Virus record (IMG/VR): IMGVR_UViG_2778261464_000003 | Span: 1-8,243 of that record | DNA length: 8,243 nt | Direction: 5' to 3' (one strand) | Source: a virus | Lineage: Duplodnaviria > Heunggongvirae > Uroviricota > Caudoviricetes | Shown here: positions 1-8,243 of the stretch, in pieces | Layout of the letters: every line of letters starts with the position of its first letter | How positions within the stretch are numbered: the first letter of the stretch is position 1 | The notes under the pieces: generated by a model | The model's database searches: none | Told to the model about the DNA's origin: nothing | The model's input: the letters and a program-made list of their open reading frames with translations, nothing else | Made by a program: the position numbers and the translations under genes

Positions 1-26
1 TGTTTAGTTACGAGCGACATTGCTCC

Positions 27-54
27 GTGTATTCACTCGTTGGAATGAATACAC
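27..54. other. Inverted repeat with 9-bp arms (GTGTATTCA / TGAATACAC), 10-nt loop, just beyond the stop of the 99-722 gene
   Basis: Arms at 27-35 and 46-54 are exact reverse complements. A T-rich run follows on the + strand (61-80); no clean U-tract on the - strand. Function is not determinable from sequence. Confidence 0.25.
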
Positions 55-98
55 AGTGCAGTGTTTATTCTGTTGTTAGTGCCAAAAATAAAGGCCGA

Positions 99-722
99 CT
101 ATGCGGACTCGGAAGGAAGTCCAATCATCTTATTCAAATCTTCTACCCGTAAAGCAGGAAGTGCTGTACTTGCTTTGTCTGCTTCTTTTGGTAGCAATTC
201 TTTGCTTTCAGGCCAAACTTCAATAAGTCGCTTAACTGTTGTGACTGAGTTCAAAGCAGCCCATACATTTGATTCGATATCCTTTTTCTTGGCTTCAAGT
301 TTTTGTTGCAATGCGCAGATTTCATCAAACCTTTTTGTTATTTCGTGTTCTGCATCAAACATGCATTTATCTTTGGTTGGAGTAGGGAGCAATATATCTT
401 CGCCGTTGCCGTCTTTCCCATATGAATGCCATCCAACCCTTCTGCCAGATACAGTCAGATAAATTGAAGTAGAACGAACATCGTATGAGTAAAATGAACA
501 TCCCATCTTTTCAAGTTCTTCACTTATAGCTACTAACCTGGATGATAACTGATCCACTTCCTCAGTTTTCTTTTTACCGCCAAACGCAATAACTCTGGCG
601 TCAAGTGCAAGCTGGTTCTTTAACTTTGTTACTTCTTCAAGTTCAGTGAAAACCCCAGACTTAATTAAAGCGTTACGAGCGATTTTCTCTTTCATTCTCG
701 TAGTTAAGCGGATTGATGACAT
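99..722 (-). CDS. Hypothetical early-left (pL operon) protein, 207 aa, charged with coiled-coil-like stretches, no transmembrane segment
   Basis: Long ORF on the same strand as N and immediately downstream of it. The track ORF runs 99-782, but the internal ATG at 722 (MSSIRLTTRMKEK...) is preceded by GAGAGG with 7-nt spacing, whereas the 782 start has no RBS. Stop TAG at 99-101. No family recognised by eye. Confidence 0.6.
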   Translation of the reverse strand: MSSIRLTTRMKEKIARNALIKSGVFTELEEVTKLKNQLALDARVIAFGGKKKTEEVDQLSSRLVAISEELEKMGCSFYSYDVRSTSIYLTVSGRRVGWHSYGKDGNGEDILLPTPTKDKCMFDAEHEITKRFDEICALQQKLEAKKKDIESNVWAALNSVTTVKRLIEVWPESKELLPKEADKASTALPALRVEDLNKMIGLPSESA

Positions 723-783
723 ATTAATTCCTCTCAAATAAGTGGTTTGCTGCCTAATTTTATTTTCTGGCGACCAACACAAG

Positions 784-1056
784 TCATCTTGCTGTCAGTT
801 GTTTGGATTTCCGGTATCCTGCCGCGTAAAGAGCTACGTTCGGAAGACAAGTTGAACCTTCATATTTTCTGGTCAGCGTTGTCAGTGTTATTACTTCTGC
901 TCTCATTGCTGGTTTGCGTTTGCATTGCAAGACCACTCGTGAAGGGGTTGGCCTGTGTAGTTTGTCGGAGCTAATCGCCTCCTGACTTTGCAGGTTTGCT
1001 CGACGAGCTCTACGGCGAGAAGCTGCAGTGCCTTTAAATTCTGTTTTTCTGGACAT
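784..1056 (-). CDS. N: N-like transcription antiterminator (P22 gene 24 type), 90 aa
   Basis: Arginine-rich motif near the N-terminus (GTAASRRRARRANLQ). The C-terminal sequence LPNVALYAAGYRKSKQLTAR closely resembles the P22 gp24 C-terminus as I recall it. Start ATG at 1056 is preceded by GGGAGG with 5-nt spacing; the track start at 1140 has no RBS. Sits downstream of the pL/nutL candidates. Confidence 0.7.
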   Translation of the reverse strand: MSRKTEFKGTAASRRRARRANLQSQEAISSDKLHRPTPSRVVLQCKRKPAMRAEVITLTTLTRKYEGSTCLPNVALYAAGYRKSKQLTAR

Positions 1057-1154
1057 AGATTCCTCCCGAATAAACTCTGGTGATGCAATCTCGAAGCTCC
1101 TCCTGAGACGGTTGCTTCGGCATTGCATCCCACAGCTCATGTGGTTGGGTGATC

Positions 1155-1201
1155 TGGCTTTTCAGCCACGTAGTCGAGTGTTCGACGTTGTTTAAAGAGC
1201 C
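1155..1201 (-). promoter_or_regulatory. nutL-like site: boxA (1186-1201) and boxB hairpin (1155-1168)
   Basis: The - strand reads GGCTCTTTAAACAACG (boxA-like), then a 17-nt spacer, then TGGCT-GAAA-AGCCA (5-bp stem, GAAA loop). Nearly the same arrangement recurs downstream of cro (nutR candidate), which supports both calls. Confidence 0.55.
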
Positions 1202-1246
1202 TGCCAGTCTGTTCCGTTTGGCTTCCAGCGTCCTGCTGACGGTTAA

Positions 1247-1275
1247 ATAGTACGATATGTACTTTATTGGGTCAA
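1247..1275 (-). promoter_or_regulatory. pL-like early-left promoter: -35 TTGACC, 17-bp spacer, -10 TACTAT
   Basis: On the - strand, TTGACC (plus 1270-1275) and TACTAT (plus 1247-1252) are separated by exactly 17 bp. The site is upstream of nutL and N and overlaps the operator-like palindrome. Confidence 0.5.
1249..1263. promoter_or_regulatory. OL operator candidate: 15-bp palindrome AGTACGATATGTACT
   Basis: Near-perfect dyad with half-sites AGTAC(A/G)/TGTACT overlapping the pL -10 and spacer. Related copies occur in the cI-cro intergenic region (3516-3530, 3548-3562). A weaker related copy sits at about 1274-1288. Confidence 0.45.
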
Positions 1276-1464
1276 TACGATTTGTTCTAAAATAGGGTGA
1301 TTTTTTATAACACTTTGTATTTAATAGTGTTGTTTTTTAGCGTGGGTGTATCGCCTCGGCGATGTAAGGAGAGATCAGAATTGCGTGGTTTAGTGAGTTG
1401 TATCTATTTATTTTTCAATAAATACATTTGGTTATGTGTCTTTAGGTGGGGCGTGAGGCAAAGA

Positions 1465-1495
1465 AAACCCGGCGCGGTGGCCGGGTTTATTTATT
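1465..1495 (-). terminator. Intrinsic terminator (timm-like) ending the cI-cassette leftward operon; bidirectional in form
   Basis: 9-bp stem AAACCCGGC (1465-1473) / GCCGGGTTT (1480-1488) with loop GCGGTG. A T-run follows on both strands (minus RNA: hairpin then UUUUCUUUG; plus: UUUAUUUAUU). It directly abuts the stop codon (1491-1493) of the 216-aa gene. Confidence 0.6.
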
Positions 1496-2141
1496 GCTTA
1501 GGAGCTTGTTGTGATGACGATTGGTTAGTTGGAGCGCTCGTTAATGGTTGCTGTGTCGGTACCTGTATTATAATTGGAGCCGGGCTGGTTACTGATGGTG
1601 ACTTGTCATTGCCGGAGATAATCCAACTTGAGGCTAACATCACGCCAGACAGAATCACAGTAACTAAAGTCAAGCCAACGGCCATCGCCCACTGAGTCGT
1701 TGTAAGTCCCGTTTTCAAACCGCCGATTTCACCTTTAATTTCAGCAATACCTCTCTCAATAGAAGAAAATTGCTGAGTATAATAGGTTTTAAAGTCAGCT
1801 GATTCGCGACGCATTTCCGCAGCAATAGACTCTACCTCTGATTTGTTTTGTGAAAGCTTTGCGTCAAGTTCTTCTCTGGACATTCCGCTCACGCTTACCT
1901 CCAGGGTATCACTCTTCATCGCTACATCTTCCTTACTTGGGCGCAAACCCGTTTCGTCCATGGCGTATGAAACTCTATTTGATACCTTAGCATCAATACC
2001 AATACTTTGGTACTGAGATGGATCCCCATAAGGAGAAACGGTTGTCGCTGCTAGGGTTGCACTAACTATAATACTTGGAAGAACTGATGATGTTGTTCCT
2101 GAGGTAGGTTGAACTGAAGAAACTGGCTTCAGTCTTTCCAT
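1491..2141 (-). CDS. Cassette gene 3: 216-aa predicted membrane-anchored coiled-coil protein with a Ser/Thr/Pro/Gln-rich C-terminal tail
   Basis: ORF directly followed by the terminator. N-terminal hydrophobic segment (VLPSIIVSATLAATTV), a charged central region (EELDAKLSQNKSEVESIAAEMRRESADFK...), one clear transmembrane helix (WAMAVGLTLVTVILSGVMLASSWII), then a low-complexity tail. The start at 2141 overlaps the upstream gene stop by 13 nt; a weak AGGGA RBS lies about 9 nt upstream. No family recognised. Confidence 0.6.
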   Translation of the reverse strand: MERLKPVSSVQPTSGTTSSVLPSIIVSATLAATTVSPYGDPSQYQSIGIDAKVSNRVSYAMDETGLRPSKEDVAMKSDTLEVSVSGMSREELDAKLSQNKSEVESIAAEMRRESADFKTYYTQQFSSIERGIAEIKGEIGGLKTGLTTTQWAMAVGLTLVTVILSGVMLASSWIISGNDKSPSVTSPAPIIIQVPTQQPLTSAPTNQSSSQQAPKQ

Positions 2142-2395
2142 AGCCCATTATCCCTGAGAGCTACCTGTAATGATTTTACTAATGCAACAGCTTGATCCGG
2201 GCTCATTGAGACTGACATGTTAGGGGTCAACTCAACTTTTACTTGGAAGCTATTCTTTCCTTGCTCATCAGACTGCATGTGATGCTCAAATTCATGGCGG
2301 TAAAAAGTAATGATTGTTTCAGCACGATCAGGCGTAATAAGAACTGATGTGGCGGTCATGTGCTGAGGTATGATTTTAATAGTGTTATCTGACAT
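2129..2395 (-). CDS. Cassette gene 2: 88-aa hypothetical soluble protein (the track ORF extends to 2536)
   Basis: The ATG at 2395 (MSDNTIKIIPQ...) is preceded by AAAAAGGA with about 6-nt spacing. In-frame ATGs further upstream (2431, 2437, 2536) lack an RBS. Stop at 2129-2131 overlaps the start of gene 3. The start is uncertain; the protein could be up to 135 aa. Confidence 0.5.
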   Translation of the reverse strand: MSDNTIKIIPQHMTATSVLITPDRAETIITFYRHEFEHHMQSDEQGKNSFQVKVELTPNMSVSMSPDQAVALVKSLQVALRDNGLWKD

Positions 2396-2587
2396 AAGTA
2401 TCCTTTTTGTTTCCTTAGTATTTTTTTGCATTGACATCAGAAATAGCGAATCCACAAGAGTATGAGTAAAGCTAATCAGTTTAGTGATACGGTGACTATT
2501 AAAGTGGTAAACCACATCAAAGCTCGCAGAGTGCATACCAGGCTGTCACACATGACAAAGTAACGAGGATGCCTGATCTCATAGCGC

Positions 2588-2743
2588 TCAAAGAGACATG
2601 CCGATAATGGCATTAACCACGCATGACGCCATAAACACGCCGCCAACGATGAAGCTGGCTTGGTTCTTCCTGGTAGCGCCAAGAGTCAACAGAACCACTG
2701 AAAGGGCAAAAAAAGGTATCGCGATTATGCTGAACGTGTTCAT
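2588..2743 (-). CDS. Cassette gene 1: 51-aa small membrane protein with two predicted helices (not in the supplied ORF track)
   Basis: Manual translation of the - strand gives MNTFSIIAIPFFALSVVLLTLGATRKNQASFIVGGVFMASCVVNAIIGMSL. A GAGG RBS lies about 8 nt upstream of the ATG at 2743. Starts 78 nt downstream of the cI stop with no terminator between. Two hydrophobic stretches separated by RKNQ. Confidence 0.45.
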   Translation of the reverse strand: MNTFSIIAIPFFALSVVLLTLGATRKNQASFIVGGVFMASCVVNAIIGMSL

Positions 2744-2820
2744 GTTGACCTCAACTTATTTCGATTCTCCATCACCCTTAATCCGCCGCCCCATGTGTTT
2801 GTTGTGATCCGTTGCTGGCC

Positions 2821-3480
2821 TTAACCAAACGTCTCTTCAGGCCACTGGCTGGCGATAACTTTCCCCACAACGGAACAACTCTCATTGCATGGGATCATTG
2901 GGTACTGTGGGTTTAGTGGTTGTAAAAACACCTGACCGCTATCCCTGATCAGTTTCTTGAAGGTAAACTCATCACCCCCAAGTCTGGCTATGCAGAAATC
3001 ACCTGGCTCAACAGCCTGCTCAGGGTCAACCAGAATTAACATCCCGTCAGGAAAACTAGGTTTGGATCCTGTTGGCGCGGTCATGGAATTACCTTCAACC
3101 TCAAGCCAGAATGCAGAATCACTGGCTTTTTTGGTTGTGCTTACCCATCTCTCCGCATCACCTTTGGTAAAGGTTCTGAGTTCTGGAGAGAACATCCCAG
3201 CCTGAACATGAGAAAAAACAGGGTACTCATATTGTTTTTTAACTGGGGCCGATGAGTATTCGCCAACAGGTGAAAATGTCCCGTCGTGGTTGAATGATAT
3301 GTTATCAATACCAAGGTATTTAAACACCACACCAATATCACTAAGAGATGGATGACGAGATCCGCGCAACCAGTGTCCAATCCCACCCTGCGTCATACCT
3401 AGCTCTTCGGCTAACTTCTCTTGAGTTATGCCGAGCTCTTTCATTCTGGATCTAGCCAGTTCATACCATTTCATTTTCAT
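2821..3480 (-). CDS. cI: cI-type prophage repressor: HTH N-terminal domain plus LexA/S24-like autocleaving C-terminal domain (lambda-type), 219 aa
   Basis: The C-terminal ~130 aa ([30 protein letters not shown]...GNSMT...FKKLIRD...[12 protein letters not shown]) match lambda cI residues about 100-236 as I recall them, including the Ala-Gly cleavage site and Ser/Lys dyad context. The N-terminal ~80 aa are a different HTH domain ([22 protein letters not shown]). Start at 3480 (MKMKWYEL) has AAGGA upstream; the track start at 3522 is probably an upstream extension. Confidence 0.9.
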
Positions 3481-3515
3481 GTCCTTATTATTACGCTCTG
3501 TATTGCAACCATCCA

Positions 3516-3564
3516 TGCACAATGTGTATTTTTACTTGCATTCAAAAAGTACATATTGTATTTT
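3516..3564. promoter_or_regulatory. OR/pR region: two operator-like dyads (3516-3530, 3548-3562) overlapping a pR-like promoter (-35 TTTACT 3531-3536, -10 TATTGT 3554-3559)
   Basis: TGCACAATGTGTATT and AGTACATATTGTATT fit the same pattern as the OL palindrome. The rightward -35/-10 pair has 17-bp spacing and lies about 30 nt upstream of the cro start. pRM (leftward) must lie here too but could not be pinned down. Confidence 0.5.
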
Positions 3565-3590
3565 TTCTTCATGGTTACTATGGAGGGCAT

Positions 3591-3806
3591 ATGAGCAACC
3601 TACGAAAATATCGAGAGTCACTGAATATCTCTCAAACAACACTTGCTAAGGCAGTTGGATGCACACAGGGAGCTATCGGACATTGGGAATCTGGTCGTCG
3701 CTTCCCAGACCTTAAAACATGCCGTGCTCTTGTTGCGTGTCTAAACAAGTTAGGCGCAAAAGTCAGTCTTGATGACGTGTTCCCGCCGGAACACAAAGCC
3801 GCTTAA
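3591..3806 (+). CDS. cro: Cro-like HTH repressor, 71 aa
   Basis: Divergent from cI across the operator region. GGAGGG RBS at 3582-3587. The HTH segment (ISQTTLAKAVGCTQGAIGHWESGRRFP) has a recognition helix nearly identical to the cI N-terminal domain ([15 protein letters not shown]), as expected for proteins sharing operators. The track ORF from 3522 is an upstream extension. Confidence 0.8.
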   Translation: MSNLRKYRESLNISQTTLAKAVGCTQGAIGHWESGRRFPDLKTCRALVACLNKLGAKVSLDDVFPPEHKAA

Positions 3807-3816
3807 TAAGCGGATC

Positions 3817-3862
3817 CGCTCTTTGTAACAACGGACATTCGTCCTACGTCGCTGAAAAGCGA
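3817..3862 (+). promoter_or_regulatory. nutR-like site: boxA (3817-3832, CGCTCTTTGTAACAAC) and boxB hairpin (3849-3862, TCGCT-GAAA-AGCGA)
   Basis: Same boxA core (GCTCTTT..AACAACG), about 16-17 nt spacer and 5-bp stem/GAAA-loop boxB as the nutL candidate on the other strand. Located just downstream of the cro stop. Confidence 0.55.
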
Positions 3863-3937
3863 ATCCCAGAATATCTGACCAACTAAGGCCATATGCGTTT
3901 CCACGCATACCTTTCAACTAACTATTCACTATTGGAA

Positions 3938-3970
3938 ATCTTAAGAAATGGAAAGAACAAGTTACAGCAA
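3938..3970 (-). promoter_or_regulatory. pRE-like cII-activated promoter candidate (TTGC-N6-TTGT flanking the -35, -10 TAAGAT)
   Basis: The - strand reads TTGCTGTAACTTGT (plus 3957-3970, inside the first codons of cII), then a 17-nt spacer, then TAAGAT (plus 3938-3943). This mirrors the lambda pRE layout, where the cII box overlaps the cII start. The second repeat is TTGT, not TTGC. Confidence 0.35.
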
Positions 3971-4244
3971 ACTATCACAGCGTGACGTTGATCGCGCAGA
4001 AACAGATTTACTTATCAATCTGTCAGCTATTACCCAGCGCGGTCTGGCAAAGATGATTGGCTGTCATGAATCGAAGATAAGCAGAACGGACTGGAGATTT
4101 ATTGCTTCGGTCTTGTGTGCTTTCGGAATGGCATCAGACATCAGTCCGATTAGCAGGGCTTTTAAGTATGCGCTTGATGGACTCACAAAGAAAAAATCCC
4201 CGGCCGCCACCGAGGATTTTAAGCAAATTGATATGCAATTCTGA
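3948..4244 (+). CDS. cII: cII-like transcriptional activator, 98 aa
   Basis: HTH region (GLAKMIGCHESKISR) and a C-terminus (KKKSPAATEDFKQIDMQF) closely resembling lambda cII (KKRPAATERSEQIQMEF). Positioned after cro/nutR as in lambda. Confidence 0.85.
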   Translation: MERTSYSKLSQRDVDRAETDLLINLSAITQRGLAKMIGCHESKISRTDWRFIASVLCAFGMASDISPISRAFKYALDGLTKKKSPAATEDFKQIDMQF

Positions 4245-4266
4245 GGGAATTACTGGATCAATCCAC
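4188..4266 (-). ncRNA. oop: OOP-like antisense RNA candidate (~78 nt) overlapping the 3' end of cII
   Basis: On the - strand, an extended -10 promoter TGtCATAAT (plus 4274-4282) lies about 80 nt upstream of an intrinsic terminator inside the cII 3' end (minus RNA: AAAAUCCUCGG-UGGCGG-CCGGGGAUUUU then UUCUUUG; plus 4193-4220). The terminator stem resembles the lambda oop terminator as I recall it. No good -35 found. Ends are approximate. Confidence 0.45.
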
Positions 4267-4276
4267 AGGAGTAATT

Positions 4277-4438
4277 ATGACAAAACGTCGTAAGAAATAC
4301 CAGGAAAAAGAAGAGATTCGACACCCTGATTCACCTGAGGGATTAGTGGTAGCCGCAGCAAATAACAGGGCGTTCGCAGAGCGCCTTGTTGGTGTTTACA
4401 GACTAGCCAAAGCAGGAGTGAAACATGGGCGTCGTTAA
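4277..4438 (+). CDS. Small basic ORF, 53 aa ([53 protein letters not shown]), not in the ORF track
   Basis: Good RBS AGGAG at 4267-4271 with 5-nt spacing to the ATG at 4277. Stop TAA at 4436-4438 overlaps the O start (4425). Fills a 180-nt cII-O gap that is short and non-coding in lambda. Function unknown. Confidence 0.4.
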   Translation: MTKRRKKYQEKEEIRHPDSPEGLVVAAANNRAFAERLVGVYRLAKAGVKHGRR

Positions 4439-5246
4439 GTTAGCTGATTACAGGCCTCAACTTGAGGTCGTGGAGCATCGCGTGGCAGATACCGAAGATG
4501 GTTTCATGCGCGTTGCTAACGAGATTACCGACAGTCTGCTGATGGCTGATTTAACCGTCCGGCAGTTGAAGGTGATGCTCGCTATCATGCGCAAGACATA
4601 CGGATTCAATAAGCCGATGGATCGACTCACAAACACGCAGATAGCAGCCATGACAGGTATTCATCACACTCATGTTTGCGCTGCCAAGCGCCAGCTTATC
4701 GAGCGTAAATTCCTCATTGCTGATGGCGTGAAAATCGGAGTGAACAAGGTGGTTTCGCAGTGGATTAGCCAGGACAGCTTAACATTAGCTAAAACAGCTA
4801 ATAAAACATTAGCCAAGTCGGCTAATGGGTATAAGCCAAGTCAGCTAAACACAAAAGACAATATACAAAAGACAATAAATACAAATACCCCCTTACCCCC
4901 TAACGGGGGCGGCGATGGGCAGGTTAAACCTGAACGTCGCAAGGCAGAACGAATCGACTACGAATCCTTCCTGAACGCCTACAACACCGAAGTCGGTGAC
5001 AGACTGCCACACGCTGTTGCGGTCAACGAGAAACGCAAACGCCGCCTGAAGAAAATCATCCCGCAACTGAAAACGCCAAACGTGGACGGTTTCAGAGCGT
5101 ATGTCAGGGCGTTTGTGCATCAGGCCAAGCCGTTTTACTTCGGAGACAACGACACGGGCTGGACAGCTGATTTTGATTACCTGCTGAGGGAAGATTCGTT
5201 AACGGGAGTACGGGAAGGGAAGTTTGCAGACAGGGGGATTGCATGA
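4425..5246 (+). CDS. O: Replication initiator, lambda O / P22 gene 18 family, 273 aa
   Basis: The N-terminal domain ([15 protein letters not shown]...[38 protein letters not shown]) closely matches the lambda O N-terminal domain as recalled (NVADLDDGYARLSN...ADLTKRQFKVLLAILRKTYGWNKPMDRITDSQLSEIT). RBS AGGAGTG upstream; internal iterons and AT-rich region; stop overlaps the helicase start. Confidence 0.9.
4764..4890. repeat. Origin-like region inside O: four ~18-25-bp iterons (4764-4850) followed by an AT-rich stretch (4851-4890)
   Basis: Direct repeats with the core TTAGC(C/T)A..(G/A)(T/A)C.GCT(A/T)A: ATTAGCCAGGACAGCTTAAC, ATTAGCTAAAACAGCTAAT, ATTAGCCAAGTCGGCTAAT, AAGCCAAGTCAGCTAAAC, each internally dyad-symmetric. 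Then ACAAAAGACAATATACAAAAGACAATAAATACAAATA and a GC hairpin CCCCC-TAAC-GGGGG (4896-4909). Same layout as ori-lambda within the O linker. Confidence 0.6.
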
Positions 5247-6619
5247 GACAGGATATCGAAGCGAGCGTTATCGGTGGCCTGCTGATTGGTGGATTAACAC
5301 CAACCGCCAGCGACGTTCTGGCAACGCTGGAGCCGGAAGCGTTTTCAATTCCGCTCTACCGGAAAGCCTTCGAGGTTATCCGCAAGCAGGCGAGAAACAG
5401 AAACCTAATCGATGCGCTGATGGTTGCCGAGGCGTGCGGAGAGGAGCATTTCACGTCAATCCTGATGACCAGCAAAAACTGCCCGAGTGCCACAAACCTG
5501 AAGGGATATGCCGGAATGGTCGCGGATAACTATCACCGCCGTCTGGTGCTGGAAATCATGGATGAAATGCGTGAACCAATTCAGAGCGGAACCATCGACG
5601 CATCGAGTCAGGCGATGGATGAGCTTGTAAAGCGTCTTTCAGCCATCAGAAAGCCCCGTGACGAGGTTAAACCTGTACGGTTAGGGGAAATCATTACTGA
5701 CTACACTGACACGCTTGACAGGCGTCTGAGGAACGGAGAAGAGTCCGATACCCTGAAGACCGGAATCGAAGAACTTGATGCCATCACCGGAGGGATGAAC
5801 GCGGAAGACCTGGTGATAATCGCTGCTCGTCCTGGTATGGGGAAAACCGAACTGGCGCTGAAGATTGCCGAAGGCGTTGCAAGCCGCGTTATTCCTGGTT
5901 CTGACGTCCGGCGCGGGGTATTGATTTTCTCAATGGAAATGAGCGCATTGCAGATTGCAGAGCGAAGCATTGCCAACGCCGGGAGGATGTCGGTTAGTGT
6001 GCTGCGAAATCCTGCAGCGATGGATGACGAAGGCTGGGCGCGCGTTGCTAACGGCATGAGTCAGCTTGCAGATTTGGATGTATGGGTAGTCGATGCCTCG
6101 CGGTTATCGGTCGAAGAAATACGCTCAATCGCAGAACGGCACAAACAGGAAAATCCAAACCTCTCACTCATCATGGTGGATTATCTTGGCCTGATTGAGA
6201 AGCCGAAAGCAGACCGCAACGACCTCGCAATTGCTCACATCTCCGGAAGCCTGAAGGCGATGGCGAAAGACCTGAAAACGCCCGTTATCTCCCTGAGTCA
6301 GCTTTCGCGCGATGTTGAGAAGCGACCAAACAAACGCCCGACAAACGCAGATTTGCGTGATTCAGGAAGCATTGAACAGGACGCAGACTCAATCATCATG
6401 CTCTATCGGGAAGCGGTATATGACGAGAACAGTAGCGCCGCGCCATTTGCTGAAATCATCGTAACGAAAAACCGTTTTGGCTCGCTTGGTACGGTTTACC
6501 AGCGGTTCTGCAACGGACACTTTGTTGCATGTGACCAGGATGAAGCCAGACAGATTTGCACAACATCAAATGCACCTGCTGCACGTGGCAGACGATATGC
6601 ACAAGGGGCTGACGTATGA
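5243..6619 (+). CDS. DnaB-family replicative helicase (P22 gene 12 type), 458 aa
   Basis: Walker [10 protein letters not shown], DnaB-like motifs [45 protein letters not shown] overlap with the O stop. The length equals what I recall for P22 gp12. Confidence 0.9.
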
Positions 6620-6644
6620 CCATCTACATCACTGAGCTTGTAAC

Positions 6645-6676
6645 AGGCCTGCTGGTAATCGCAGGCCTTTTTATTT
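6645..6676 (+). terminator. Intrinsic terminator (tR2-like) between the helicase and ninB
   Basis: Perfect 8-bp stem AGGCCTGC (6645-6652) / GCAGGCCT (6661-6668), 8-nt loop, followed by TTTTATTT (6669-6676). Confidence 0.6.
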
Positions 6677-6692
6677 GGGGGAGAGGGAAGTC

Positions 6693-7133
6693 ATGAAAAA
6701 ACTAACCTTTGAAATTCGATCTCCAGCACATCAGCAAAACGCTATTCACGCGGTACAGCAAATTCTTCCAGACCCAACCAAACCAATCGTAGTAACCATT
6801 CAGGAGCGCAACCGCAGCTTAGACCAAAATCGGAAGCTTTGGGCTTGCCTTGGTGACGTTTCGCGTCAGGTTGAATGGCATGGTCGCTGGCTGGATGCAG
6901 AAAGCTGGAAGTGTGTGTTTACCGCAGCATTAAAGCAGCAGGACGTTGTTCCTAACCTTGCCGGGAATGGCTTTGTGGTAATAGGCCAGTCAACCAGCAG
7001 GATGCGTGTAAGCGAATTTGCGGAGCTATTAGAGCTTATACAGGCATTCGGTACAGAGCGTGGCGTTAAGTGGTCAGACGAAGCGCGACTAGCTCTCGAA
7101 TGGAAAGCGCGATGGGGAGATCGGGCTGCATGA
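6693..7133 (+). CDS. ninB: NinB (Orf-family recombination protein), 146 aa
   Basis: The protein from MKKLTFEIRSPAHQQNAIHAVQQILPDPTKPIVVTIQERNRSLDQNRKLWACLGD... matches lambda NinB almost residue for residue as recalled. RBS GGGAGAGGGAAG upstream of the ATG at 6693; the track start at 6675 is an extension. Confidence 0.9.
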   Translation: MKKLTFEIRSPAHQQNAIHAVQQILPDPTKPIVVTIQERNRSLDQNRKLWACLGDVSRQVEWHGRWLDAESWKCVFTAALKQQDVVPNLAGNGFVVIGQSTSRMRVSEFAELLELIQAFGTERGVKWSDEARLALEWKARWGDRAA

Positions 7134-7657
7134 CTATCAAATCAAATACGGCAGCACACGACAAGGACTGCTGGCAAACGCCGCTTTGGCTTTTTGATGC
7201 ACTGGATATTGAGTTTGGATTCTGGCTGGATTCGGCAGCGAGCGACAAAAATGCTCTGTGCGCTCACTGGCTAACTGAGGCCGACGACGCACTCAATTCT
7301 GAGTGGATAAGCCACGGTGCAATCTGGAATAACCCACCGTACAGCAATATCAGGCCGTGGGTGGAAAAAGCCGCTGAGCAGTGCATACAACAGCGACAGA
7401 CGGTAGTTATGCTTGTGCCAGAGGATATGTCAGTCGGATGGTTCAGCAAGGCTCTGGAGAGTGTCGACGAAGTTCGCATTATCACTGATGGACGGATTAA
7501 TTTTATCGAACCATCGACAGGGCTGGAGAAGAAGGGAAACAGCAAAGGCTCCATGCTGCTGATTTGGCGACCGTTCATCAGTCCTCGACGGATGTTTACT
7601 ACCGTATCCAAAGCGGCATTGATGGCGATCGGGCAGGGCGTCAGGAGGGCGGCATGA
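7130..7657 (+). CDS. Phage Dam-type DNA N6-adenine methyltransferase, 175 aa
   Basis: Start MTIKSNT at 7130 (ATGA overlap with the ninB stop). Motifs [25 protein letters not shown] and IWNNPPYS (NPPY catalytic motif) are typical of the small phage Dam family. The track start at 7070 is an in-frame extension inside ninB. Confidence 0.75.
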
Positions 7658-7830
7658 GGCGACAGCGACGAAGTTTCACCGACATCATCTGCGAAAACTG
7701 CAAATACCTTCCAACGAAACGCTCCAGAAATAAACGCAAGCCAATCCCAAAAGAATCTGACGTAAAAACCTTCAATTACACAGCTCACCTGTGGGATATC
7801 CGGTGGCTAAGATATCGTGCGAGGAAATGA
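7654..7830 (+). CDS. ninE: NinE-family protein, 58 aa
   Basis: [58 protein letters not shown] matches lambda/P22 NinE as recalled. RBS AGGAGGG at 7643-7649; ATGA overlap with the methyltransferase stop. The track start at 7564 is an extension. Confidence 0.75.
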
Positions 7831-8174
7831 CAATGGATTATTCACAGTTAAGTGATTTTGAAATTAACAGAATGGTAGGAGACATAATTTTTAAAGGCCT
7901 TTGGGCAAGTAAACCGGAAACATCAGGGAATAACACCAACAAATGGTATTACGGAAATGCTGATACAACTTTTGAGCCATTAAATCATTTTCCTGACTAC
8001 TGCAATGATCCGAGCGCTTCATGGCCGATTATTGAGAAATACAGGATTTCTATCTTAGACCAGTTAACTGAATGGTGTGTGGATGCAAAAGGCGTAAGCC
8101 CAATATTTGATACCAGACCTCTCCGCGCCGCCATGATTGTCTTTCTCCTGATGCAGGAGGCCAATAATGCTTAG
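7827..8174 (+). CDS. nin-region hypothetical protein (possibly NinX-like), about 115 aa
   Basis: ORF in the nin gene array between ninE and ninF. Start is either ATG 7827 (ATGA overlap with the ninE stop, like every other junction here) or ATG 7833 (better spacing from GAGGAA at 7821-7826). The NinX assignment is by position only. Confidence 0.6.
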
Positions 8175-8243
8175 CCCATCCCAAACCCTTCAATACCAGA
8201 AAGAAAGCGTCGAGCGAGCTTTAACGTGCGCTAACTGCGGTCA
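8167..8243 (+). CDS. ninF: NinF, N-terminal fragment (continues past the window end)
   Basis: [25 protein letters not shown] matches the lambda NinF N-terminus as recalled. RBS AGGAGG at 8155-8160. The ORF is still open at 8243. Confidence 0.75.

Follow-up and report, generated by a model that had tools for sequence, protein, structure and literature searches.

Probable N-utilization sites with GAAA-tetraloop boxB hairpins in the early region of a VT2-Sakai-type lambdoid prophage

An 8,243-nucleotide (nt) stretch of viral DNA from the Caudoviricetes (IMG/VR record IMGVR_UViG_2778261464_000003, positions 1 to 8,243; hereafter the window) comes from a lambdoid prophage of the VT2-Sakai type and represents its immunity and early-regulation region. 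It carries a gene for a lambdoid N protein and two paired elements, nutL and nutR. In this study, we found that these elements are very probably the antitermination sites of an N/nut system in which a boxB hairpin with a true GNRA tetraloop is bound by the arginine-rich motif (ARM) of the window N. The observations behind this reading are the anatomy of the sites, their positions, their conservation and covariation, their identity with the sites of VT2-Sakai, their homology with nutR of phage H-19B, and the co-occurrence of ARM type and boxB loop. Binding of N to the tetraloop and the roles of individual residues in it we infer from the sequences. The same comparisons slightly favour the idea that N would discriminate against pentaloop boxBs.

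Each site consists of a boxA, an ACAAC element, a spacer hairpin, the bases UACG and a boxB (Table 1). A lambdoid nut site is expected to have a boxA with the consensus CGCUCUUA, or like UGCUCUUUA, 5' of boxB (PMC2724277). The boxAs of both window sites agree with this description, and the core in nutL fits the rrn/lambda boxA consensus (PMC2724277). In several relatives boxA was degenerate or absent, yet the spacer hairpin and boxB were kept. The composite pattern GCTCTTT-N20-35-GCTGAAAAGC occurred exactly twice in the window, at 1157-1200(-) and 3818-3860(+), and in 0 of 200 dinucleotide-preserving shuffles. An earlier note on this DNA, made from the letters alone, had proposed paired nut sites of an N system, and the two composite motifs, one per strand and at lambda-like positions, bear this out. 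The note had given the spacers as 16-17 nt, which by its own definition of boxA should read 17 nt for nutL and 15 nt for nutR. The 'AACAACG' that it counted as boxA core is the conserved ACAAC element together with the first base of the spacer hairpin. Neither the spacer hairpins nor the close kinship with the H-19B nut sites appeared in it.

Both boxB 14-mers consist of a stem of 5 base pairs (bp) and a 4-nt loop that is a GNRA tetraloop by sequence. They fold as the perfect 5-bp stems with true 4-nt GAAA loops that the earlier note had described. No register of either boxB gave a 5-nt GNRNA loop with a paired stem. The pentaloop register GAAAA closed by U-G was dropped, since the next pair would be C-C and a 5-nt loop is impossible in that register. 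Four hairpins in the window combined a 5-bp Watson-Crick stem and a U-A closing pair with a loop of GNRA or GNRA-like sequence, compared with 0.37 expected from mononucleotide shuffles, and only those at nutL and nutR stood in a boxA and spacer context. An A/U-only hairpin, UUAUU-GAAA-AAUAA at 1408-1421(-), lies upstream of pL, outside any boxA context, and probably matches by chance.

The hairpins could also be something other than N sites, namely chance palindromes, terminator or Rho-loading elements, or RNase III sites. The 0 of 200 shuffles with the composite motif argue against chance, and no U-tract follows either boxB hairpin as it would in a terminator. Rfam, searched at a permissive threshold, matched no family at either nut site, which would suit such an explanation, and nutR overlaps the Rho-loading region of lambda and H-19B (PMC3526286). 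However, the positions are exactly kept relative to pL, N, cro and cII, the architecture recurs across genera with compensatory changes, and the sites share homology with the nutR of H-19B, which has been used in experiments. We give this explanation hardly any weight.

Conservation of the fold was assessed in 55 unique nut variants. Pairs were counted in an anchor-based, N-padded alignment, which replaced a plain MAFFT alignment that misregistered the spacer stems and the loop indel; the replacement leans towards structure. A standard pair was present in every cell, a 100% pairing that is partly by construction, since variants had been chosen for a paired boxB and a script had fitted the spacer hairpin. 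Both sides had changed in 6 of the 11 pairs. The covariation score was 0.424, compared with 0.083 in shuffles (0 of 500 reached 0.424) and at most 0.059 with slid partners. The outer boxB pair was U-A, G-C, A-U or C-G and the second pair C-G or G-C among the variants, and the three loop-proximal pairs (G-C, C-G, U-A) did not vary. For nutL alone, the outer boxB pair took the forms U-A, C-G and A-U among relatives. The pair next to the loop is the closing pair, constant as U-A across all 55 variants, and lambda N requires a U-A closing pair (PMC12027372). In one IMG/VR contig (L045), the only such case seen, the nutL boxB UGGCC-GCAA-GGCCA has a C-G closing pair; its ARM is divergent (GTADSRRREARKHLQALPV) and its nutR is still UCGCU-GCAA-AGCGA. 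In the spacer hairpin, double compensatory changes were found in four of six pairs. Its stems were of four unrelated kinds (GGAC/GUCC, GGUGA/UCACC, GUCGA/UCGAC and GAUUC/GAAUC), always placed between ACAAC or ACAAU and UACG. In nutR, 43 unique variants kept the spacer stem and varied its loop.

The relationship between the ARM and the boxB loop was examined in 211 loci. They were gathered by two scans of viral contigs with the nutR and nutL stems and any 4-5-nt loop, by a scan of species-representative genomes with a 7-sequence N-terminal alignment, and from fetched records. True nut sites had GAAA, GCAA or GACAA loops only. Stem-pattern matches with non-GNRA loops in viral contigs (CTGAG, CACA and others) were set aside as chance because neither a boxA nor an N gene accompanied them. 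The loop was GAAA or GCAA in 96 of 96 sites with the UGGCU stem and in 76 of 76 tetraloop nutR sites. Among 135 pairs of nutL and N, the 100 with a window-type ARM (GTAASRRRARRANLQSQ and its variants, 24 sequence variants) all had GAAA or GCAA, and the remaining 35, with an ARM of the H-19B/933W/HK97 type (5 variants), all had GACAA. The nutR loop followed the ARM type in all 87 loci that held nutR as well. Every one of the 54 nutR sites paired with a window-type ARM had a 4-nt loop, and none had the GNRNA pentaloop of lambda. Some phages (L004, L114) combined a GCAA loop at one of their nut sites with a GAAA loop at the other; therefore, no discrimination is made at the second position of the loop, in keeping with GNRA recognition. 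Across the classes, there were 31, 7 and 22 distinct distances from N to nutR and 18, 5 and 6 distinct upstream contexts.

The window-type ARM was found on three different C-terminal domains of N, which are P22-like, lambda-like (…RGKSIPLI) and 933W-like. In L041, L094, L100 and Salmonella phage epsilon34 it sits on a long 933W-like N backbone. The nutL of these four loci also has a 933W-like backbone, and its boxB is CGGCU-GAAA-AGCCG or AGGCU-GAAA-AGCCU. The pair of ARM and tetraloop, with the same architecture, also occurred in prophages of Pantoea, Erwinia, Mixta and Atlantibacter and in one further Enterobacterales genome. In our view, these comparisons argue that loop type follows the ARM and not the remainder of N or the flanking DNA. 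The earlier note had suggested a separate ARM-RNA pair. The strict co-occurrence in the 135 nutL-N pairs and the 87 nutR loci supports the pairing, and its further part, specific recognition, is suggested by co-variation only. A 3.5-kb contig labelled as a Segatella copri metagenome-assembled genome, of the Bacteroidota (L127, JAJXBQ010000280.1), also encodes an N 98% identical to that of the window and has nutL and nutR of the tetraloop kind; contamination during binning most likely explains its presence there.

The same counts could arise if the sites are functional and the tetraloop is equivalent to the pentaloops, so that N accepts any GNRA-like fold and the co-occurrence reflects shared ancestry and linkage. 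The lambda N peptide binds a boxB with a GAAA loop, and P22 N tolerates varied GNRA-like loops. The tetraloop and GACAA forms of nutR are one base apart on an otherwise equal backbone, N adjoins nutL, and many loci are near-identical relatives among Shiga toxin (Stx) phages. However, no mixed locus was seen among the 87, despite the much-exchanged immunity region between N and nutR, and the two main classes contain 31 and 22 distinct N-to-nutR distances. In L041, L094 and L100, N proteins of 933W-like backbone combine a window-type ARM with tetraloops in a 933W-like nutL. The window ARM keeps the lambda-like core RRR-x-RR-A, and the patch of Arg 6-11 dominates binding by lambda N (PMC12027372), whereas at the position aligned with Arg11 of P22 the GACAA class has Lys and the tetraloop class has Ala. 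Interchangeable loops seem to us rather unlikely.

Alternatively, the spacer hairpin with its ACAAC and UACG flanks might give N its specificity, the length of the boxB loop being a neutral passenger. These parts are conserved as strongly as boxB, and ACAAC and UACG are nearly invariant. However, GGAC-AUUC-GUCC, ACAAY and UACG are common to both ARM classes, and the spacer elements cannot discriminate the classes because the same ones serve both. Only the boxB loop changes with the ARM, together with the stem in nutL. Neely and Friedman are said to have found in 2000 that deletion of the H-19B dyad had little effect, which also counts against a specificity role. We consider this explanation quite improbable.

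Several further points weigh against the reading of nutL and nutR as tetraloop sites recognized by the window N, in addition to the part of the pairing that is by construction. In the searchable literature we found no binding, footprinting or reporter data for the window N and these hairpins. Legault in 1998 and Cocozaki in 2008 reportedly described lambda and P22 N as tolerant of GNRA-like variants, and discrimination may be weak. Many of the loci are close relatives, and the counts are not independent events. N and nutL lie about 100 nt apart; therefore, their coupling could be simple linkage, and only the coupling to nutR argues for selection. Finally, the minimum-energy fold of the whole nut RNA forms no boxB and pairs boxA with the 3' arm of boxB. 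In this alternative fold of 1150-1205(-) and 3814-3870(+), the boxA bases GCUCUUU pair with GAAAAGC, the loop and 3' arm of boxB, with z values of only -2.1 and -1.4. Within the window, the second boxB pair and the base just 5' of GCUCUUU look as if they covary. The alternative pairing was rejected on its loss of complementarity in relatives, and the boxA-boxB covariation is treated as coincidence because relatives that join AGCU or CGCU boxA starts to a UGGCU boxB break the pattern.

The N protein of the window is 100% identical to N of VT2-Sakai, the Stx1-converting phage, 1717, YYZ-2008, 2851 and others. Its Pfam N_peptide match and the alignment of its ARM with those of lambda, phi21, P22 and 933W place it among the lambdoid N proteins. 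The sequences used for comparison were taken from the records of lambda, P22, phi21 (lambda imm21), 933W, H-19B and HK97. The aligned ARMs are GTAASRRRARRANLQSQE in the window, DAQTRRRERRAEKQAQW in lambda, GTAKSRYKARRAELIAE in phi21, GNAKTRRHERRRKLAIE in P22 and GNSRSRRRERLKAKALA in 933W. The window ARM is in register with lambda N A3-Q17 (BLASTP E=0.001), and its best alignment is with phi21 N (12 of 20 residues identical, E=5e-6). It keeps Ala3, the Ser/Thr cap, R6-R8, R10, R11, Ala12, Gln15 and Gln17 of lambda. The main difference from lambda is Glu26 in place of Trp18, and Lys14 is replaced by Leu. None of the 24 ARM variants has an aromatic residue at the position aligned with Trp18, which, according to Legault in 1998, reportedly stacks on the boxB loop in lambda. 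Position 9 is Ala in the window, and Glu9 of lambda was inert in a mutational scan (PMC12027372). The earlier note had called this ARM distinct; as judged by these alignments, it is an allele of its own, yet not different in kind from known ARMs.

In the P22 peptide, Arg11 contacts a flipped-out C (PDB 1A4T; PMC12550061). The aligned residue is Lys in the 933W/GACAA class and Ala both in the window type and in lambda. Ala at this position would fit the absence of an extruded C. The C-terminus of N is P22-like, as the earlier note had recognized (LPNVALYAAGYRKSKQLTAR in the window, LPGVALYAAGHRKSKQITAR in P22). The peptides deposited in the PDB are too short for a sequence search with N, which gave no match up to E=10.

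Among the closest known systems are those of VT2-Sakai (Sp5, AP000422) and the Stx1-converting phage (AP005153), whose nutL and nutR are annotated as putative. At either nut site, their boxA and boxB have exactly the window sequence. VT2-Sakai differs in nutL only in the loop of the spacer hairpin (CUC, compared with ACAC in the window) and in nutR only in flanking bases. Its nut sites have the same positions relative to pL, N, cro and cII. Its moron genes and parts of its immunity and replication regions differ, and there the window is closer to HK97. AP000422 marks the nut stretches as 'putative N-utilization leftward' and 'rightward' (L001 4428-4468 and 7073-7112). These features are approximate spans that cover boxA, the spacer and half of boxB. 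Because the spans stop inside the boxB loop, they leave the hairpin and the size of its loop undescribed.

The nutR of H-19B, 933W and HK97 reads CGCU(A/C)UUUUCACAAU-GGACAUUCGUCC-UACG-UCGCU-GACAA-AGCGA. These phages share boxA, ACAAY, the spacer hairpin, UACG and boxB with the window, and in nutR the spacer hairpin, the linker and the boxB stem are identical. Between the nutR spacer hairpin and cII, all three phages nearly match the window except at one loop base. In contrast, their loop is GACAA at both sites (5 nt, P22-like) with the ARM GNSRSRRRERLKAKALANG, whereas the window has GAAA, with no C, and GTAASRRRARRANLQSQ. Their N (127 amino acids) is 40% identical overall to the window N. The homologous parts are the N-terminus M-x-R-K/R-T-x-F-K-G, the EAISS..LHRPT segment and the C-terminus. 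In H-19B and 933W, nutL has no boxA, whereas nutL of the window has a good one. N-dependent antitermination at H-19B nutR has been reported both in vivo and in vitro, as have loss of activity on mutation of the ARM and two hairpins in H-19B nut RNA (PMC3526286). The window has a nut architecture of the H-19B type with another boxB loop, because the spacer hairpin, linker and boxB stem are shared. HK97 (L135, NC_002167) forms a natural near-isogenic pair with the window. From the nutR boxA to the start of cII (3817-3950 in the window), the two are nearly identical save for a one-base loop indel and a few changes in the boxA region, and HK97 carries an N and a nutL of the 933W type. This comparison is limited to the stretch from nutR to cII; the cro gene and operators of HK97 differ.

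Lambda boxB has a GNRA-like pentaloop, GAAAA or GAAGA, with an extruded fourth base. It resembles the window boxB in its 5-bp stem, its U-A closing pair, the first G and last A of the loop and the positions of the sites. The window loop is one base shorter and leaves no base for extrusion, the spacer contains a hairpin where lambda has a short linear spacer, and the C-terminal domain of N is of the P22 type, not the lambda type. The boxB of P22 N (gp24) has a GACAA pentaloop with an extruded third base (PDB 1A4T). P22 and the window are alike in the C-terminal 20 residues of N, which are homologous, and in the top of the boxB stem (GCU...AGC). They are unlike in the ARM (GNAKTRRHERRRKLAIERD in P22) and in the loop, which has no extruded C in the window.

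Phi21 has the ARM whose N-terminal half is most similar to that of the window (KGTAKSRYKARRAEL compared with KGTAASRRRARRANL). Its pL leader and nutL boxA are also almost identical to the window DNA (lambda imm21, L126 2620-2680, compared with 1186-1245(-)). However, its boxB is unrelated, having a longer stem and a CUAACC hexaloop of non-GNRA sequence (PDB 1NYB; PMC12550061), and its C-terminal domain is of the lambda type. Since boxA is alike and boxB wholly different, a mosaic junction lies between the two. In epsilon34, the 14 nt annotated as 'putative NutR - boxB' (tcgctgaaaagcga) are identical to the window nutR boxB. Its N-like gp43 (120 amino acids) has a window-type ARM, and its nutL has the tetraloop boxB CGGCU-GAAA-AGCCG. 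Epsilon34 differs from the window in its long 933W-like N backbone, a nutL without boxA, a degenerate nutR boxA and its Salmonella host. The paper on epsilon34 took the divergence of the N-terminus to predict a 'novel BoxB specificity' for its N (PMC2629481).

A mechanism can be proposed from these comparisons. Transcripts from pL and pR would carry nutL and nutR, respectively, and NusB/NusE would bind boxA. The spacer hairpin may shorten the path from ACAAC to UACG; Neely and Friedman reportedly put forward such a 'reducer' role for a nut spacer hairpin in 2000. The ARM helix of N would dock on the GNRA tetraloop and the U-A closing pair. This helix is predicted to be lambda-like (S-RRR-A-RR-A-x-L-Q), lacking a Trp for stacking on the loop and having Ala where GACAA-binding ARMs are basic. 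The middle segment of N, HRPTPSRVVLQCKRK, aligns with the start of the NusA-binding region of lambda N and probably engages NusA, and the P22-like C-terminus probably engages RNA polymerase. The expected outcome would be processive read-through of tR1 and the terminators downstream. In the lambda complex, the KH domains of NusA also contact boxB (PMC8632103).

The boxB loops described in the literature are pentaloops (lambda, P22) or a hexaloop (phi21), which mimic GNRA (PMC12550061, PMC12027372). We found no paper on a natural tetraloop boxB, or on a test of the window N, in the searchable literature, and an earlier mention in subscription papers is possible; nor did searchable papers combine boxB with Stx, with 933W, or with GAAA and lambdoid. 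N, the system and the nut sequences are already known, having been annotated since about 2000 (VT2-Sakai) and 2008 (epsilon34). What is new is the comparative evidence, which points to the tetraloop as an ARM-RNA pairing of its own, one base away from the GACAA class. The window system is best read as ordinary N/nut antitermination in a tetraloop form, and we rate it as a little-noticed variant of a well-known system because its sequences have long been annotated. It is possible, at somewhat below an even chance, that the window ARM and the tetraloop boxB constitute a fourth natural N-boxB specificity class. Such a class would be orthogonal to those of lambda, P22/H-19B and phi21, and a single-base indel in the loop, along with ARM changes, would convert it to and from the GACAA class.

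Complexes of N and boxB are a textbook model of ARM-RNA recognition and a widely used tethering tool. A natural plain-tetraloop pair would allow the role of the extruded base, for instance in NusA contact or phage discrimination, to be tested. It would likewise allow a test of how a one-base indel and a few ARM changes create a new specificity. If the fourth class is real, the N-NusA-nut complex would be shown to assemble without an extruded loop base, as the class has none. The pair also bears on cross-talk among lambdoid prophages in Shiga-toxin-producing E. coli, in which N read-through leads to Q and toxin expression, and could provide an extra orthogonal peptide-RNA tether. Its practical importance is modest, as the system is otherwise ordinary and already annotated.

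Table 1. Features of the two nut sites and of the surrounding genes, in positions of the window.
Feature	Position	Strand	Remarks
nutL	1155..1200	-	downstream of pL-like promoter; GCUCUUUAAACAACG (1200-1186), UCGAACACUCGACUACG (1185-1169), boxB (1168-1155)
nutL boxA core	1193..1200	-	GCUCUUUA
nutL spacer hairpin	1186-1173	-	GUCGA-ACAC-UCGAC
nutL boxB	1168-1155	-	UGGCU-GAAA-AGCCA; 14-mer UGGCUGAAAAGCCA; fold -6.3 kcal/mol, z = -2.8
nutR	3817..3862	+	11 nt past cro stop codon; CGCUCUUUGUAACAACG (3817-3833), GACAUUCGUCCUACG (3834-3848), boxB (3849-3862)
nutR boxA	3817..3825	+	CGCUCUUUG
nutR spacer hairpin	3833..3844	+	GGAC-AUUC-GUCC; identical to H-19B and 933W nutR spacer hairpin
nutR boxB	3849-3862	+	UCGCU-GAAA-AGCGA; 14-mer UCGCUGAAAAGCGA; fold -5.7 kcal/mol, z = -4.6
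N gene	784..1056	-	stop codon included; 90 amino acids; Pfam N_peptide PF25694, full length, E=3.4e-32
ARM codons	979..1032	-	N residues 9-26, GTAASRRRARRANLQSQE; in register with lambda N A3-W18 and phi21 N K10-E27
pL-like promoter	1247..1275	-	TTGACC, 17 nt, TACTAT; consensus scan; 'putative major leftward promoter' of AP000422
Nmad5-domain gene	99-722	-	nucleotide modification associated domain 5; 207 amino acids; full-length domain, E=3.7e-72; directly downstream of N
cI-type repressor	2821..3480	-	Pfam HTH_3 and Peptidase_S24; immunity region, between both nut sites
cro	3591..3806	+	Pfam HTH_3, E=4e-12; position matches VT2-Sakai cro annotation
cII	3948-4244	+	
tR1-region hairpin	3892..3909	+	core UGCGU-UUCC-ACGCA; equivalent stretch of AP000422: 'putative rho dependent terminator for pR transcript'

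Genes were assigned across the window from a map of open reading frames (ORFs) and Pfam scans (Table 1). As in lambda, pL, nutL and N lie on one side, and cro, nutR, tR1 and cII on the other. The N start codon ATG is preceded, 5 nt upstream, by a GGAGG Shine-Dalgarno sequence. The window also encodes an O-like initiator, a DnaB-like helicase, NinB and a DNA methyltransferase. Many Shiga-toxin phages match the N region at 94-96% identity, and HK97 is 97.6% identical over 73% of the window but has a different N.

The tR1 region is the first terminator region for N to overcome. On the minus strand, the strand of a pRE-type transcript, the hairpin at 3892-3909 is a GGAA tetraloop hairpin. Three ORFs, at 1491-2141(-), 2129-2398(-) and 2588-2743(-), lie between the terminator of the cI operon and cI, which is the position of rexAB in lambda. 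The first two had no Pfam match, and HK97 has gp48 and gp49 there; the third encodes a hydrophobic peptide of 51 amino acids. They are probably lysogenic-conversion or exclusion morons. A 6-bp hairpin, CCGCUU-AAU-AAGCGG at 3799-3813(+), extends over the double TAA stop of cro directly 5' of the nutR boxA, as it does in VT2-Sakai, and its minus strand was scored as terminator-like in the consensus scan.

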